Below, piece after piece: positions 22,280 through 28,478 of a stretch of DNA of 52,385 nucleotides. This DNA comes from a virus. Lineage: Duplodnaviria; Caudoviricetes. Location of the stretch: IMG/VR virus record IMGVR_UViG_3300022602_000137, positions 1 through 52,385 of that record. The stretch is one strand, 5' to 3'. Made by a program: the position numbers and the translations under genes. The notes beneath the pieces are model-generated. The model was not told the origin of the DNA. It did not search any database and saw nothing but the letters and a program-made list of their open reading frames with translations. How positions within the stretch are numbered: position 1 is the first letter of the stretch; each line of letters starts with the position of its first letter.

Positions 22280-23047
22280 TTATTTGCGTATTTTTTCATT
22301 GTATTTTACCACTTCTTCGAGTACTGTAATAGGTTTATTTAGGTCGTTGGCATAATGAATGAACGCTTTTGTGTCTTTTGGAAAGCAAGCACCGCCAAAG
22401 CCACGGCTCATATCAGGACCGGGTACCATCATATGGCTACTGCCAATACGAAGATCATGTGTTAATACCTGTCGAACTAGGCTATATTCAGCGCCATTAG
22501 CTTGACAAATATCATACAATTGATTAAAAAATGCTACCTTAGTACTTAAGAAGCAATTAACGGCATATTTGATTGTGCTGGCTTCTATGATACTGGTATT
22601 AAAATACATTTTGCAATTTGGCAATGATTCTGTAAACAATGTTTGCCAAAATCCTTCAGGATCGTCCCCGCCTACTACCATATATTTTTGATTGGCAAAG
22701 TCTTCATTAGCAGTGGCTGCACGTAAAAATTCTGGACTATAACAAATGCTATGATCTTTAAAATCTTTGAGCAGTTGTTCTAAATAGTCCGGACGAGTAG
22801 TACATTTGATTAATATAGGTATATGTATAGGCACTTCGGCCATTACACTATAGATTTGACTAACATCACAATCACCATTTTCAGTACTAGGGGTTCCTAC
22901 ACAAATGATAATACCATCGGCGTAAGGGAAATGTTCTATTTTCGATGTTGTATATGCTGGATCTACTATGTGTATAGTATTGTTTTTGTCAATACTATTA
23001 GCAACAGCTTTACCAACGAATCCGTATCCTGCGATAATTATATTCAT
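22280..23047 (-). CDS. ugd: UDP-glucose/GDP-mannose 6-dehydrogenase family protein (lacks C-terminal domain)
   Basis: GYGFVG Rossmann, ICVGTP, SPEFLR, K..N.FL..K..F.N, GFGGACFPKD. Confidence 0.9.
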   Translation of the reverse strand: MNIIIAGYGFVGKAVANSIDKNNTIHIVDPAYTTSKIEHFPYADGIIICVGTPSTENGDCDVSQIYSVMAEVPIHIPILIKCTTRPDYLEQLLKDFKDHSICYSPEFLRAATANEDFANQKYMVVGGDDPEGFWQTLFTESLPNCKMYFNTSIIEASTIKYAVNCFLSTKVAFFNQLYDICQANGAEYSLVRQVLTHDLRIGSSHMMVPGPDMSRGFGGACFPKDTKAFIHYANDLNKPITVLEEVVKYNEKIRK

Positions 23048-23048
23048 A

Positions 23049-25715
23049 TTAAAACTCAAATAAACTATTAAAGGTATTCTTTTCTTCGGTACTATTAATA
23101 TCCCACTTTAGAACACCAATTAGGTTATCTAACTTGTTATCGATAATAGTCTGTTCCATTTCAGCATGGTCAAAAGGTAAATCTTTAAACCATTGTGGTA
23201 AACGAAGTTCGTCGACTGGGTAAGCTACTGATGTAAAGCCTAACGGATTAGGTTTAAGTTTACATACAATAACTTTCTGACCATCAGTAATACTCATTGA
23301 GTATTTGTCGTTGTACATTCGCTTGAGTGTATTCCAATTAATACTTGCTCGTACATGACCAGGCATATTAGCCTTGCCAGCCTTCTTCTCTTTTGCTTCG
23401 TATTCTGTAATATTGTTTGCACGTTTTGGACTACCTTTCTCCCATCCTGGGCGACTTTTAAATAATGTTCGGAATTGGGTAATGTGATCAAGCACTTCTT
23501 GTTCGCTCTTACCTGTTAAAACCATTTCAAGAACATCGCTTAAAAAGTTTTGAATAAATTCTGGTGTATCACTACGCTTAAGGTCCAAGCCCATGGCCTT
23601 GATCTTACCAGGTTTACCATCTACGTCTGCCCGTTTGCCTTCCTTATCATAATAAAGAACAGCATAACGTTTCTTAGTAATGAATAATGATTTAGATCCA
23701 ACAATTTCACGACCAGCTTTGATAACTTCGCCACGTGTTTTAGGTACATGAAAAGCATCTAACATGAATTGTGGGAATGTTTGATTTACTTCGTCACCGA
23801 TTGTGTCATACAATTGGATAACAGTTTCTTTACTCCACGGAATCTTACCAGCATCAATATCTTTCTGTAAGGTCTTATATGCTGAGAAATAACAACTGTC
23901 TGTATCACCATAGATAATTGCCTTACCAGTATGATTATATTCACCTGCGATGATTTCGTTTACTTTACCAGCCATATGTTTAGCGATCTGGCGTCCTGTA
24001 AGAGTAGTGGATTGTCCAATACGCTTATCAAAGAAACGACAACCAGGATTAAGAATAGCACCATATAAGCTATTAAGGTTAATCTTTTTAACCAGTTGAC
24101 GCTTGTCCCAGTATTCTTCTTCAATTTTATTCCCCGCTTTAATTGCTTCTTTTAATTTGGCCTGCATCTCTTTACGTTCAGCATACCAACGTTTTAGCAG
24201 TCCAGGAATAACACCTTCAGTTTCGTGGCTAAAGATAGTACCATTAGCACTAAGCATCCAAGGTTGATTGCTTTCAAATATTAATCTATATACTTCAGCG
24301 GCACTTAATACATCACTATCTCCATTTTCCCAATCAATGGTGATATCTGTGCCAATTTCTTGATTCATTACAGCAGTATACTCTAATGAACCAAATATAC
24401 CTTCCCATGCCGCCGCAAATGATTTACCTTTAGCCATTTGCGTTTCAATAAAATCATCGGTCATTGTTTGACGCAACTGTCCAATGATTGTCTCTGGACC
24501 CATGTTAAGTGCTCTAATAGCTGATGGATACAGTGAGTTGATATCTAATGATCCGACCCAGTCTTGAATACCTTCCTTGGGATAAGCAACATAAGCACCA
24601 GCCGCGGCATTATTTTCTCGCTCATCCATTTTGGGACGATTAGGAACTTGGAATCCACGTCTATGGGCTTCGTTAATAATAGCCTGTTCAGTTACAGCTA
24701 CAGCACCCATTGTAGTTTGTAGCAATACTGTATTTTCATGTGCTAGTGTATTGGCAAGATCTAAAAATTTAAGTTTTTTGTCTAGATCATCTAATAGTTG
24801 ACAGTCATTGATGTTATATTCAACGAATGTTTTAAAATCATTATTATATAATTGATCTAGTGTACCTTCGTATTGTGTTTTACGTTGACCTAATTCGTAT
24901 TCAGCAATAGCATCTAGTCGATAACTATGGCGTTCTTCATATGTGTACTTACGATATAGTTCTAGACTATCTAAGTGTACACGGCCTACAAAGTCATAGG
25001 TAACTGATTGACGACCATATTTTTCATATTCTCTGCGTTTAGGAAATTGATCAAATAAACAGAAACGTCTTGTATCTTCTTTACTAAGTGTTTTAGTTAC
25101 ACGATTAACAGTATACGGGATATCAAAGCCTTCTGAGTTCCAACCAGTTAAGATATCTGCGTCTTTGATCAAATCTAAAAATACATCTAGCATCTCTGCT
25201 TCAGTTTCGTAAAGCATTACGTTATCAAAGTCTTTAACAGCTTCTTTAGCCTGCTCCATAGTTAGAGTCTTTGGTGGAATGGCTAAACATATCATGGTAT
25301 CTAACCATTGTAGCTTAACAGCAATGGCAGTAATTGGCATGAACGCATCGTCAGGTGATGCGTAGCCACGCTCTGGATCAAAGTCTACCTCAATATCGAA
25401 AAATGCTACATTTAATTTTGGAGCATCTTGATTAAGATAGTTTTCACTGAGTGTTACAAAGATTGGATTAATGTCTGCTTCGTACATTGTCTTGCCACTG
25501 TTAATGGCCATTTCTTTACGAAGTTCTTTAGTGTTTTTACAGACGATCCGTTGAACAGGATCTCCATAAATGGATTGGTGTTTACCTCTAGGATCTTTTA
25601 CATAGAAAGTGTGACGAACGGGAATGTCTCTAAATTCTCTTTCGCCTTTCTTGTTGCGTTCAACGATTCTAATAATATCGTTGTCGCGATCAAACCATGC
25701 GTCTACATAGCTCAT
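23049..25715 (-). CDS. family B DNA polymerase (gp43-like)
   Basis: Exo FDIE, GWNSEGFD, YNIND; pol DINSLYPS, KINLNSLYG, YGDTDS, KKRY. Confidence 0.98.
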   Translation of the reverse strand: MSYVDAWFDRDNDIIRIVERNKKGEREFRDIPVRHTFYVKDPRGKHQSIYGDPVQRIVCKNTKELRKEMAINSGKTMYEADINPIFVTLSENYLNQDAPKLNVAFFDIEVDFDPERGYASPDDAFMPITAIAVKLQWLDTMICLAIPPKTLTMEQAKEAVKDFDNVMLYETEAEMLDVFLDLIKDADILTGWNSEGFDIPYTVNRVTKTLSKEDTRRFCLFDQFPKRREYEKYGRQSVTYDFVGRVHLDSLELYRKYTYEERHSYRLDAIAEYELGQRKTQYEGTLDQLYNNDFKTFVEYNINDCQLLDDLDKKLKFLDLANTLAHENTVLLQTTMGAVAVTEQAIINEAHRRGFQVPNRPKMDERENNAAAGAYVAYPKEGIQDWVGSLDINSLYPSAIRALNMGPETIIGQLRQTMTDDFIETQMAKGKSFAAAWEGIFGSLEYTAVMNQEIGTDITIDWENGDSDVLSAAEVYRLIFESNQPWMLSANGTIFSHETEGVIPGLLKRWYAERKEMQAKLKEAIKAGNKIEEEYWDKRQLVKKINLNSLYGAILNPGCRFFDKRIGQSTTLTGRQIAKHMAGKVNEIIAGEYNHTGKAIIYGDTDSCYFSAYKTLQKDIDAGKIPWSKETVIQLYDTIGDEVNQTFPQFMLDAFHVPKTRGEVIKAGREIVGSKSLFITKKRYAVLYYDKEGKRADVDGKPGKIKAMGLDLKRSDTPEFIQNFLSDVLEMVLTGKSEQEVLDHITQFRTLFKSRPGWEKGSPKRANNITEYEAKEKKAGKANMPGHVRASINWNTLKRMYNDKYSMSITDGQKVIVCKLKPNPLGFTSVAYPVDELRLPQWFKDLPFDHAEMEQTIIDNKLDNLIGVLKWDINSTEEKNTFNSLFEF

Positions 25716-25725
25716 ATTTCATATT

Positions 25726-25784
25726 CTCCGATGTCATTTCCGGCTGACAAATACCTTTATGCTGTTTATGGCCAGCGTACCTTT
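25726..25784 (-). promoter_or_regulatory. tandem structured RNA element (two hairpins/pseudoknots) in polB leader
   Basis: AAAGGTAC-GCTG-GCCATAAA-CAGC and AAAGGTATT-TGTCA-GCCGGAAA-TGACA immediately before GGAG. Confidence 0.6.
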
Positions 25785-25799
25785 CTTATGTATTACTTA

Positions 25800-26057
25800 T
25801 TAGATACGTTTAGTGATATCTAAAATTGCTTCAATCTCAGCCCAATCTTCGTTATGTGCCGCCCAATCACCTTTATGAGCGATCTTAATAGCTTTGTTAA
25901 TAACGCTAGGTTTGATTTGTAATTCTTCTGCTACTGCCTTAACTGTCTCTTTCAAGCCTTCTGTTAAGTCTTCTACTTCACGGAGTACTGTAGAGCCTTC
26001 GCTGATTAATCTTTCTAGTTTTGCCTTTTCTTCTGGACCGTAATTTCTACCTGACAT
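25800..26057 (-). CDS. phage DsbA/GapR-like small dsDNA-binding protein
   Basis: 85-aa helical protein, pattern LKE..K...EEL.I.P..INKAI. Confidence 0.6.
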   Translation of the reverse strand: MSGRNYGPEEKAKLERLISEGSTVLREVEDLTEGLKETVKAVAEELQIKPSVINKAIKIAHKGDWAAHNEDWAEIEAILDITKRI

Positions 26058-26077: not shown

Positions 26078-26106
26078 ATTGTATATTAATTATCTGTGCG
26101 TGTCAA
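26078..26106 (-). promoter_or_regulatory. sigma70 promoter for replication operon
   Basis: TTGACA-17nt-TACAAT. Confidence 0.8.
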
Positions 26107-26148: not shown

Positions 26149-28452
26149 TTACTTAGCTGGTGCTGTTGTTGGTGCTGTTGTTACTTTTGGTGGCGTATAT
26201 GCTGGATCGCGCTGTGATACATTGTCCCATGGGCCACCCAATGAAGTATCAGCCGCTTCGGGCGGAGTACATTTCATGTTAGTAATTGCTGTTTGTGCTT
26301 CCTTAACTGCTCTTGCTACAGCTGGATCATTCGCAGCCATTGGAGTTAGTGCGTCAATTTCAGCTTTGATCTTTTGAACTAAGTCCATTTGTTCTGCTGT
26401 ACATACCGCAGGTTTTTCTTCAGCAGGTGTTTCTGGTGTAGTTGGACCTGCTGGAGGTTGAGTACCTTGAGCTGGACCGCCACTAGTAGGAGTATCATCA
26501 CCGTCTAGTGCAGCTGTAACACCTGCGCCTATTACACCGCCAGTAATTAAACCAATAGCCATTGCTTTCTTAGGATTAGCTTTGATCCAAGCCGCTACTC
26601 CGCCTTTACCGCCGGCCTTTTTAACTGCGTCAAACTCACGCATGATAGCTTTATATTCTGGACTTGCTGGATCTAGTGTACCTGCTCTGGCGGCAAATTT
26701 ACCTGTACCACCGTTGCCTGTTTCACGAACCCACTTAGTACCATTCCATTTAAAGTTAACACCCTTCATTGGACCAGTTTTAACTGTTCTAATAGCACCT
26801 TTTGGAACTTTAGGAATTGCTTTACCTAGTTTAGGTACTAGTTTAGCACCACCTTTAAATAATGTATCCCAGAAACCTTCTTCAAGTGTACCTTCATCTA
26901 ACTGTGTAAGCATATTGCGTAGACTAGCAATTTGTTCTGCTACAGTAGCAGGTTGCTGTTGAGTACCACCTGACATTTCTAATCCCATGGCAGCTAATGT
27001 TTCTGGATCTGGTTCACCACTTGGTACTAGACCGTTTTCTTCTTGCCATTTAGCAATAGCGGCCTGTGTTCTTGGACCAGGTACTCCGTCGAGATCTTTA
27101 CCAACCATTCCTACTTTTGCTTGAATCGCCTGGACATCTGGGTTGCCGTTTGGTGCTTTGAATGTTGCTAGGTCTGCCTTGCTTCTTAACAAGTCAGCAC
27201 CTTTTTGTAATAATAAATTGCCACCGATCATTGCGCCGTATTTTGCGCCAGTTTGTAGTGCAGCTCCAGCGCCTAGTTTAGCGGCACCACGTGCAGCCAA
27301 GTTACCAACACCTGAACCTGGAACAATCATACTACTACCAACTGCTCCAGCAAGATTACCACCGCCATATAACCATGGGCTACGTTCTTGTGCGGCTTTG
27401 TCTGCTTGTTGTTCTTTGTCTAGCTCGTCTTTGTATTTTGTGCCTTTGACTAGGCTCTTAACTCCAGCATTGATATTATTACCAAATCCTAGTGTAGCAC
27501 CTTGTTCAATACCACGTGCTGTATCACCTACATCACCTTTAAATTGATCCCAACTATATTCTACAAGTGTTCCATCGACGTCGCGGAAGTAACGGGTATC
27601 TTCTGCGGTATAACCAAAACTTTCCATCAACGCATCAGACATGCTAGTTGATTCGGCAATCTTTTCAATAATAAATGGTTTTTCACTTTCACTAATAACT
27701 TGTCCGGTGCCGTCTTCACTTACGATAACCCATTCACCAGTTTCGTCTTTGATTAATTTTTTACTAGCATTTTCTACACCTTCTGGAGTACCAAGTCGAT
27801 AACCAGTAACACCACCGCCTACAGCACCTAGACCAGCGCCAATTGGGCCACCAAGTGCTAGTCCACCTAAACCGCCTGCGGCAGCTCCGATAGCGGCATC
27901 TGACCAACGATGGTCACTATTATTAGTTTTAACAGGTTGTGTAGCAGGAGGTTGAGTGCCTTGATTAGGTTTCTTAGGATCTGTTTTAGCATCTGGTTTT
28001 GCAGCAGTAGCAGGAGTTGCTTTAGCTAACTGGTCTACTAGACCGTATAGTGTTTTTAAATGTTCTTGTTTAAATTCGATGTCGTCTTGTGATTTATTAT
28101 AAGCGTCACTAGATTGACGAATCGACTGATCATATTTGTCACCACTTACACCTGTAAGACTACCAAGGAAAGATGAACTATGAGAATTAGGAGGAATTAA
28201 CCCGCTTGCTTGTAATTGGGCATCAACTGCGGCACTAGGAACACTACCGCGACTAGCTCTGTTGTCAACAAACTCGCCGTCGATCGGATCATATAATCCT
28301 GGCAATTTATTGTCATTGGCTAATTTTGCTAATGTAATAGCACGAGATTTTGGATCAGGATCGTTTCCTACCGCGGCCTTAACATCTTTTAAACGAAATT
28401 CGTTAAGTTGTTCGATAGTTTCTAGTTTGTTTATTAAATCTCTGATATTCAT
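26149..28452 (-). CDS. putative internal virion/ejection protein with glycine zipper and peptidoglycan-binding domain
   Basis: Gly-zipper GAAAGGLGGLALGGPIGAGLGAVGGG; PG_binding_1-like VQAIQ...DGVPGPRTQAAIAKWQ..NGL..SGE.D.ETL; start MNIRDLI. Confidence 0.65.
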   Translation of the reverse strand: MNIRDLINKLETIEQLNEFRLKDVKAAVGNDPDPKSRAITLAKLANDNKLPGLYDPIDGEFVDNRASRGSVPSAAVDAQLQASGLIPPNSHSSSFLGSLTGVSGDKYDQSIRQSSDAYNKSQDDIEFKQEHLKTLYGLVDQLAKATPATAAKPDAKTDPKKPNQGTQPPATQPVKTNNSDHRWSDAAIGAAAGGLGGLALGGPIGAGLGAVGGGVTGYRLGTPEGVENASKKLIKDETGEWVIVSEDGTGQVISESEKPFIIEKIAESTSMSDALMESFGYTAEDTRYFRDVDGTLVEYSWDQFKGDVGDTARGIEQGATLGFGNNINAGVKSLVKGTKYKDELDKEQQADKAAQERSPWLYGGGNLAGAVGSSMIVPGSGVGNLAARGAAKLGAGAALQTGAKYGAMIGGNLLLQKGADLLRSKADLATFKAPNGNPDVQAIQAKVGMVGKDLDGVPGPRTQAAIAKWQEENGLVPSGEPDPETLAAMGLEMSGGTQQQPATVAEQIASLRNMLTQLDEGTLEEGFWDTLFKGGAKLVPKLGKAIPKVPKGAIRTVKTGPMKGVNFKWNGTKWVRETGNGGTGKFAARAGTLDPASPEYKAIMREFDAVKKAGGKGGVAAWIKANPKKAMAIGLITGGVIGAGVTAALDGDDTPTSGGPAQGTQPPAGPTTPETPAEEKPAVCTAEQMDLVQKIKAEIDALTPMAANDPAVARAVKEAQTAITNMKCTPPEAADTSLGGPWDNVSQRDPAYTPPKVTTAPTTAPAK

Positions 28453-28478
28453 AATCTTTTCCCGTGACACTATATTTA

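Follow-up and report, generated by a model that had tools for sequence, protein, structure and literature searches.

Translation of the phage T4 DNA polymerase is controlled by the polymerase itself. gp43 is an autogenous repressor that binds an upstream hairpin together with sequence overlapping the ribosome-binding site, and the gp43 proteins of RB69 and RB49 likewise bind a hairpin upstream of their own ribosome-binding sites (PMC3014915). In the sections of that source that deal with these operators, the loop determinant is given as UAAC for T4 and RB69 and as UAAA for RB49, some T4-related gp43 proteins are said not to autoregulate, and no evidence is offered for a pseudoknot in the gene 43 operator (PMC3014915). 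A leader pseudoknot of the H-type does serve autogenous translational control in T4 gene 32 (PMC3014915). Read directly, the T4 gene 43 leader contains AGCCU-AAUAACUC-GGGCU, a 5-bp stem closed by an 8-nt loop, followed after 7 nt by AAGGA; a hairpin with an 8-nt loop beside the Shine-Dalgarno (SD) sequence is what the original prediction for the locus described here cites for T4. The gene 32 pseudoknot lies well upstream, where it nucleates cooperative binding over an unstructured stretch.

Further points of comparison come from small regulatory RNAs and from a synthetase operator. The preQ1-I riboswitch is the smallest H-type pseudoknot aptamer; it has an A-rich 3' loop, lies beside the SD and is sometimes tandem. 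In the guanidine-II (mini-ykkC) riboswitch two small tandem hairpins near the ribosome-binding site carry ACGR tetraloops, which dimerise through loop-loop contacts. Glycine, guanidine-II and preQ1-I riboswitches all occur in both tandem and single forms, and known riboswitch classes usually recur across genes and taxa. The E. coli thrS operator has two hairpin domains upstream of the SD that mimic tRNA anticodon arms and are bound by the dimeric synthetase that the mRNA encodes, with the ribosome being blocked.

The leader considered here precedes a gene for a family-B DNA polymerase (polB) of a giant phage, uncultured and from fresh water, in a 52,385-base IMG/VR virus record, analysed in full and referred to as the window, that CheckV places at 14% of a genome. 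Among the sequencing runs listed as containing the stretch, all are freshwater DNA metagenomes and none is an RNA set. PolB matches Pfam DNA_pol_B (2.4e-36) and DNA_pol_B_exo1, and in the PDB it aligns best, and collinearly from residue 24 to residue 835, with polymerase chains of ~900 aa (E 1.5e-59), which we take to be the RB69 and T4 gp43 entries. Coordinates of the locus are collected in the table.

Features of the polB region and of reading frames inserted there in relatives. Positions are those of the window unless a relative is named.
Feature	Position	Strand	Details
259-aa ORF	22280..23059	-	UDP-glucose/GDP-mannose dehydrogenase domains (N-terminal and central); 11-nt overlap with the polB stop
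polB, family-B DNA polymerase, T4/RB69 gp43 type, 888 aa	23049..25715	-	ORF and Pfam
Shine-Dalgarno GGAG	25726..25729	-	UC (2 nt) after unit 2; 10 nt before ATG
Unit 2 mini-pseudoknot	25732..25755; with AAA from 25758	-	AAAGGUA-UU-UGUCA-GCCGGAAA-UGACA
Unit 2 parts	GGU 25755-25753; UGUCA 25749-25745; loop 25744-25737; UGACA 25736-25732	-	linker AUU; loop GCCGGAAA
Unit 1 mini-pseudoknot	25761..25781; with AAA from 25784	-	AAAGGUA-C-GCUG-GCCAUAAA-CAGC
Unit 1 parts	GGU 25781-25779; GCUG 25776-25773; loop 25772-25765; CAGC 25764-25761	-	linker AC; loop GCCAUAAA
85-aa DsbA-like double-stranded-DNA-binding protein gene	25800..26057	-	phrog_12534, phrog_639
Sigma-70-like promoter match	26078..26106	-	TTGACA-17-TACAAT; 11/12 consensus positions; upstream of the 85-aa gene
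773-aa protein	26149..28470	-	PG_binding_1 peptidoglycan-binding domain, weak endolysin-family matches; just upstream of the DsbA-like gene
Inserted Cys-rich ORF, 53-63 aa	L106:4839-4997; L115:2045-2227; also L114, L133	-	no Pfam match
Inserted 204-aa ORF	L120:2898-3509; also L142	+ (L120)	no Pfam match

Homologues of the 85-aa gene carry the annotations "DsbA double-stranded DNA binding" and "DNA binding protein"; the gene itself closes with two consecutive stop codons, UAAUAA, 18 nt ahead of the GGU of unit 1. The sigma-70-like site upstream of this gene, which is no more than a match to the consensus, probably drives a dsbA-like/polB transcript; a promoter scan found 3 matches in the region, where shuffles lead one to expect 1.6. 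In one relative (L013) a promoter-like match ends ~6 nt before the GGU; like other promoter-like sites close to the element in relatives, it fits the consensus but does not stand out clearly from shuffles. Two relatives (L014, L027) have different sequence upstream of the element and keep both units, and in marine clades the upstream place is taken by another gene or by a promoter-like site. In the dehydrogenase frame that overlaps the polB stop, the N-terminal domain match begins at profile position 72 and no C-terminal domain matches; the frame looks short for such an enzyme.

On the minus strand, at about 25781..25731, lie two units, each composed of GGY, 2-4 nt, one strand of a 4-5 bp stem, a GCC-NN-AA-D loop and the 3' stem strand. 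Their tandem occurrence is confirmed and far beyond chance. The composite pattern AAAGGTAN{5,9}GCCNNAAA matches twice in the 52,385-base window, both times at the polB leader, and shuffles average 0.03 matches, with none of 100 reaching two. A covariance model of the unit (R1) scores 31.3 bits at 25759-25784 (unit 1) and 30.5 bits at 25731-25756 (unit 2), and the next-best score anywhere in the window is 11.2 bits. Plain minimum free-energy folding of the 111-nt leader is unremarkable (z = -0.48; the region is not singled out and hairpin 1 is not predicted), so the structural support is comparative, not thermodynamic. Taken alone, the hairpins have moderate stability (-4.6 and -4.0 kcal/mol). 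The plus-strand complement of unit 1 resembles a terminator hairpin. A comparison with Rfam, one of the checks proposed with the original prediction, returned no family: Rfam 15 gave no match at the site in a search of the window at E up to 10, nor did Rfam, with preQ1, guanidine and SAM pseudoknot riboswitches included, match in ten diverse relatives at E up to 1.

Another proposed check, the collection of polB leaders from relatives, underlies the comparative support for the structure. A PolB search of IMG/VR matched at least 598 stretches, all encoding a relative, and the best 80 (86-94% identity) were kept; both hairpins are present in 79 of these 80 leaders (L010 has Ns in stem 1). A scan of IMG/VR for the unit-2 pattern found at least 120 further stretches, 80 of which were listed. 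Among those listed, the free stem positions are complementary in 79 of 80, and polB lies downstream in the same 79, its product being 70-91% identical to the PolB of the window; for these 79, the polB start is 10-19 nt past the unit in 73 and an ORF intervenes in 6. Two PolB searches from divergent queries added 130 loci. In total, 287 loci with a located polB start reduce to 174 distinct leaders, of which, by our count, 137 have two units (those with a bulged stem 1 counted), 18 have a single unit and 13 have none; in 5 the element stands farther upstream before an inserted ORF, and 1 is spoiled by Ns. The element is conserved over PolB divergence to ~68% identity. In L131, found in the pattern scan, a terminator-like hairpin replaces unit 1. 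L041 encodes a PolB that is 89% identical and nested among two-unit relatives, and it has an unrelated leader (~860-978) that lacks the element; it is a recent natural loss, useful as a comparator.

Covariation was scored on 124 distinct two-unit leaders of related IMG/VR contigs, 45 of them from the pattern scan, in which the specified unit-2 letters are fixed by construction and the stem could vary freely. All 620 cells of stem 2 are paired, and three of its five pairs change on both sides (the pair types include UA, CG and AU at one position; CG, AU and GC at another), while in stem 1 all four core pairs covary with changes on both sides. The covariation score over these leaders is 0.354 as against 0.128 in shuffles (none of 500 reaches it) and 0.02-0.07 for slid partners; a smaller set of 59 distinct sequences gave 0.228 as against 0.085 shuffled (again none of 500). 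At the four loop-proximal pairs, 274 units are Watson-Crick throughout, 4 have one G.U, 1 has a U.U and none has an A.C; the presence of G.U and absence of A.C fits an RNA of the polB sense strand. Judged by these compensatory changes, both hairpins are real: in homologous leaders the stem sequences differ while pairing is kept.

Across relatives the stems measure 4-5 bp and the loops 8 nt, rarely 9. The unit-1 loop reads G-C-C-A-Y-A-A-D, with A at position 4 in 116 of 116 and with GCC and AA retained in 110 of 116, and the unit-2 loop reads G-C-C-N-N-A-A-R, with GCC and AA in 128 of 128. The two AAAGGUA-stem-GCCnnAAA-stem copies of the original prediction are present in the sequence as written, but in relatives conservation of the heptamer is partial, GGY being what is kept. 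In ten relatives stem 1 has one bulged nucleotide (GCG-N-G / CCGC; L097, L099, L107, L113, L124, L139, L147, L157, L162, L166), with loop and GGY unaltered.

The order of the segments (GGY 2-4 nt upstream of each stem, 5' stem strand, GCC, NNAAD, 3' stem strand) is that of an H-type pseudoknot, and by general pseudoknot geometry the loop lengths are feasible for spanning the helices. When 288 units were parsed with linkers of 1-4 nt allowed, all three possible pairs between GGY and the loop were found in 281, or in 286 once five parse artefacts, in which an over-extended stem had absorbed the GGY, are discounted. The two genuine exceptions have one pair broken each (L007, UGU:GCC; L018, GGU:UCC). 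The combinations seen are GGU:GCC, GGC:GCC, AGU:GCU and AGC:GCU, and AGY precedes the GCU loop in all six parsed leaders that have one. When unit 1 was scanned for GCU loops, 26 IMG/VR contigs came up in 15 distinct contexts, with stems GAUCA, AAUCA, GUCG and GCGA; AGU stands upstream in 26 of 26 and GGU in none. The mismatched form AAGU...GCC was found in no contig by a pattern scan whose parallel AAGU pattern fits 11 of the 26 GCU-loop contigs. One of the three pairs of this helix (S1) thus covaries, from G-C to A-U, and no A.C or G.U form was found at it; the other two pairs either never vary or vary in one partner (U or C facing G), and they speak neither for nor against the helix. A scan for ACC loops, looking for a second covarying pair, returned two real matches, both with GGU, and two chance matches, and is uninformative on this point. 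In the GCU-loop contigs the GGU and GCC of unit 2 are invariant, which places the pairing within one unit. For unit 2, where GGU and GCC never vary, we infer the pseudoknot from unit 1. On a FastTree PolB tree of 160 rows the pseudoknot state changed at least 3 times and 3 of 3 independent pairs are concordant; a sign test on these gives p = 0.25, three pairs being too few to reach significance. The putative GGY:GCC pairing, with its A-rich loop, is supported by this G-C to A-U exchange lacking mismatched intermediates, and the structural reading put forward in the original prediction is, on this comparative footing, supported and extended.

The element adjoins the ribosome-binding site. In the window, unit 2 ends 16 nt before the polB ATG (25715), and its stated position 2 nt before GGAG is exact, with a counterpart throughout: in all element-bearing relatives an SD-like word begins 0-5 nt past the last stem, which ends 8-18 nt, mostly 12-13 nt, before the start codon. 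The SD is outside any conserved helix. Neither hairpin is followed by a U-run on the sense strand, so that there is no sense-strand terminator and a transcription attenuator was rejected. A readthrough or frameshift signal for the upstream gene was also rejected, given the double stop and the different or absent gene in other clades, and a nut/put-like antiterminator was considered unlikely, as the element always adjoins a ribosome-binding site. In four relatives a Cys-rich ORF lies between the element and polB, and the element is at the ribosome-binding site of that ORF; the ORF stop and the polB start share the letters ATGA, an overlap suggestive of translational coupling. In the two relatives with the 204-aa ORF, the element precedes that ORF and polB has its own SD and no element there.

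The unit is also specific to polB. In five related contigs (609,557 bases) the unit model exceeds 18 bits only at the polB leader, where units score 25.8-33.7 bits with 16.1 bits at most elsewhere. In five more (1,287,010 bases, among them a complete 372,016-base genome with terminal repeats) the polB leader is again alone above 18 bits, with units of 16.8-32 bits there and 17.6 bits at best elsewhere. The ten contigs together, ~1.9 Mb, thus have the unit upstream of one gene only. The cultured Rak2-like phages Phosso, Atu_ph07, GAP32, XbC2 and RaK2, whose PolB is 43-49% identical to that of the window, have polB leaders without the element (best R1 score 11.6 bits); in GAP32, XbC2 and RaK2 a hairpin followed by T-rich sequence is found instead. 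A tandem pattern specific to this clade's unit 2 had no match in 185,579 prokaryote species, one genome each. A search for RegA (PF01818), in which the positive control T4 scored 2.3e-75, detected none in three related records, the complete 372-kb genome among them; with a single unit target per genome and no RegA in those records, the locus does not have the features of RegA-type global repression.

On the PolB tree of 160 rows the two-unit form occurs on both major branches, the architecture changed at least 6 times, and the element was lost in at least 5 separate lineages. These losses, together with the one clade of 18 rows that keeps a single unit, indicate that the element is dispensable. 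None of 405 conserved PolB columns changed in three or more loss lineages, a comparison of low power. The single-unit clade (L267, L270, L273, L274, L279, L285, L286, L288-L290, L294, L296-L298, L300, L327, L329, L341) has a loop of the unit-1 type in a unit GGUAC-GUUG-GCCAYAAR-CAAC immediately before AGGAG. Ahead of this unit, in the region ~70 nt upstream of polB, these leaders have an extra, different hairpin with conserved flanks (ACGCC...GGCAUG) and a variable middle, which begins a few nucleotides past a sigma-70-like match (TTGACA-17-TAGTAT in L288).

Set beside the systems introduced above, the element is closest in situation to the gene 43 operator. Both lie in the 5' leader of a homologous gp43-type polymerase gene near the ribosome-binding site, with one copy per genome; some relatives here lack the element, and some T4-related gp43 proteins do not autoregulate (PMC3014915); the hairpins are of similar size (4-5 bp stems with 8-nt loops here); and the -10-like TATAAT just upstream in T4 has its counterpart in some relatives here. 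The two differ in that the loop here is GCC-NN-AA-D rather than AAUAACUC with its UAAC, there are two units (one in one clade) rather than one hairpin, and the hairpin ends 0-5 nt before the SD instead of 7 nt. They differ also in the pseudoknot, which is supported here and is without evidence for T4 in the account of PMC3014915. The UAAC/UAAA loop determinant is absent, as unit-2 positions 4 and 5 are free and the UAAA that is frequent in unit 1 is in another register; by sequence, therefore, the element does not belong to the T4 operator family. As a lead only, the unit-1 loop GCCAUAAA does contain UAAA, the loop word reported for RB49, in that different register (PMC3014915). With T4 gene 32 the element shares an H-type pseudoknot in the leader of a replication-protein mRNA, but the downstream gene is another one, and here the pseudoknot adjoins the SD and is duplicated. 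PreQ1-I riboswitches are comparable in size, topology, A-rich 3' loop, SD-adjoining position and tandem form; here, however, the pseudoknot does not include the SD, the order of helix lengths is the opposite (3 bp, followed by 4-5 bp), other nucleotides are conserved and Rfam gave no match. Guanidine-II likewise has, shortly before the ribosome-binding site, a tandem of small hairpins in which the loops are conserved and the stems vary, whereas here the 8-nt loops each pair with their own 5' flank, and again no Rfam match was found. The thrS operator, too, has two hairpins upstream of the SD, but no mimicry of tRNA anticodon arms is evident here.

The comparisons establish that two hairpins exist, that one pair of the pseudoknot covaries, that the element is strictly linked to polB and adjoins a ribosome-binding site, and that PolB is of the gp43 type. 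The element is a structured RNA of the sense strand, specific to polB, located at the ribosome-binding site without pairing to it. We tentatively propose, as a reading with a fair way to go before it could be called probable, that it is an autogenous translational operator of PolB with a structure of a new type. In its 5' leader, the polB mRNA would fold into two tandem mini H-type pseudoknots, in each of which the 5' GGY would pair with GCC, the first three nucleotides of the 8-nt loop that caps a 4-5 bp hairpin, and the remainder of the loop, NNAAD, would cross the resulting 3-bp helix. The SD would stay unpaired, 0-5 nt past the second unit, and a protein on the folded units could block the 30S subunit sterically at the adjoining ribosome-binding site. 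The most economical binder would be PolB itself when it is off primer-template DNA, as with gp43 of T4, RB69 and RB49, and the outcome would be repression that limits polymerase synthesis. Such a geometry, an unpaired SD beside folded units, suits occlusion by a bulky bound partner, and PolB is ranked first because the sole precedent in its enzyme family is gp43 of those phages. The specificity for polB, the homology to gp43 and the absence of a conserved helix sequestering the SD favour this proposal. Counted against it are a loop unlike that of T4 and RB69, the gene order of the two relatives with the 204-aa ORF, the repeated loss, the lack of a PolB column that follows the losses (a comparison of low power), the limitation of pseudoknot covariation to one pair of three and about 3 events, and the two sequences with a broken pseudoknot pair. 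The PolB of this family is a monomer, so that two units are not obviously needed. Moreover, GGY, GCC and AA can all be explained by a tertiary fold of the RNA alone, which is aptamer-like, as is the tandem layout; this favours an aptamer, the other half of the original prediction's choice between a duplicated translational operator and a tandem aptamer. The sequence data fit either; overall, the original interpretation is partly supported. No paper on the element was found in a full-text search. A 2023 survey that predicted 8,495 structured RNAs from IMG/VR does not mention DNA polymerase in the main-text passages concerned, and its supplementary lists may include the motif (PMC10690425).

Foremost among the alternatives, though unlikely, is a tandem mini-riboswitch of a new class, with ~24-nt pseudoknot aptamers, single or tandem, for a small molecule, perhaps reporting nucleotide supply. 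Ligand would stabilise the 3-bp GGY:GCC helix and so alter access of the ribosome to the adjoining SD, and a jumbo phage would then tune translation of its DNA polymerase to a small molecule. A compact H-type pseudoknot beside the SD, in which GGY, GCC and AA do not vary, the stems do and one helix is a marginal 3 bp, and which occurs in both tandem and single-unit forms, is what such a class could look like; yet an SD that is in no conserved helix leaves no evident expression platform, the unit precedes one gene only in ~1.9 Mb of related genomes, the tandem pattern of this clade's unit 2 is absent from the 185,579 prokaryote species, and neither the window nor the ten diverse relatives matched an Rfam family. 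Next in our estimation, and likewise improbable, would be an element that needs no factor, such as an mRNA stabiliser, a processing or insulation signal between cistrons, or an enhancer that keeps the SD accessible. Its intercistronic place in the window, with the promoter-like site upstream of the 85-aa gene, the moderate stability of the hairpins by themselves and the repeated loss of the element without loss of polB would all agree with this. Generic stabilisers and insulators need no invariant loop, however, and no unit 2 departs from GCC and AA, which 110 of 116 unit-1 loops also retain; the separate upstream hairpin of the single-unit clade also makes a stabilising role seem filled otherwise.

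The structural and positional evidence for a PolB operator would serve equally for an operator of some other phage or host protein, for instance another part of the replisome, a nuclease that decides the fate of the polB mRNA or a dedicated RNA-binding repressor, and two similar units would suit a dimeric binder. We consider this more doubtful again: autoregulation is the more economical assumption where a 372-kb genome would offer a trans-acting factor only one target, and no member of the RegA family was found in the three related records. The upstream DNA-binding protein, suggested as a ligand in the original prediction, is not favoured, as the element persists where that gene is not adjacent (L014, L027 and the marine clades) and homologues of the DsbA-like protein are annotated as binders of DNA. 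Very improbable indeed is chance, or a feature of the DNA (repeats, a cruciform or a protein-binding site) that has no function as RNA. The unremarkable folding z-score and the terminator-like complement of unit 1 on the plus strand would be in keeping with such a feature, but compensatory changes in both stems and the pseudoknot, the occurrence of G.U and never of A.C, a fixed position relative to the start codon and conservation over PolB divergence to ~68% identity argue for RNA. The PolB operator thus remains the preferred reading, at the tentative level given above.

According to the pertinent sections of PMC3014915, only T4-type phages are known to place a replicative DNA polymerase under autogenous translational control, and no structure of the gp43 RNA-protein complex has been solved. 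As a PolB operator, the element would give this enzyme family a second operator, of different structure, and would show how RNA recognition by a polymerase evolves. It comes with hundreds of natural variants as a resource, with natural single-unit and zero-unit forms for comparison, and the built-in compensatory pair GGY:GCC versus AGY:GCU suits mutational tests. If PolB is not the partner, the element would be a new small regulatory pseudoknot, binding a protein or a ligand, in abundant uncultured jumbo phages of freshwater and marine habitats.
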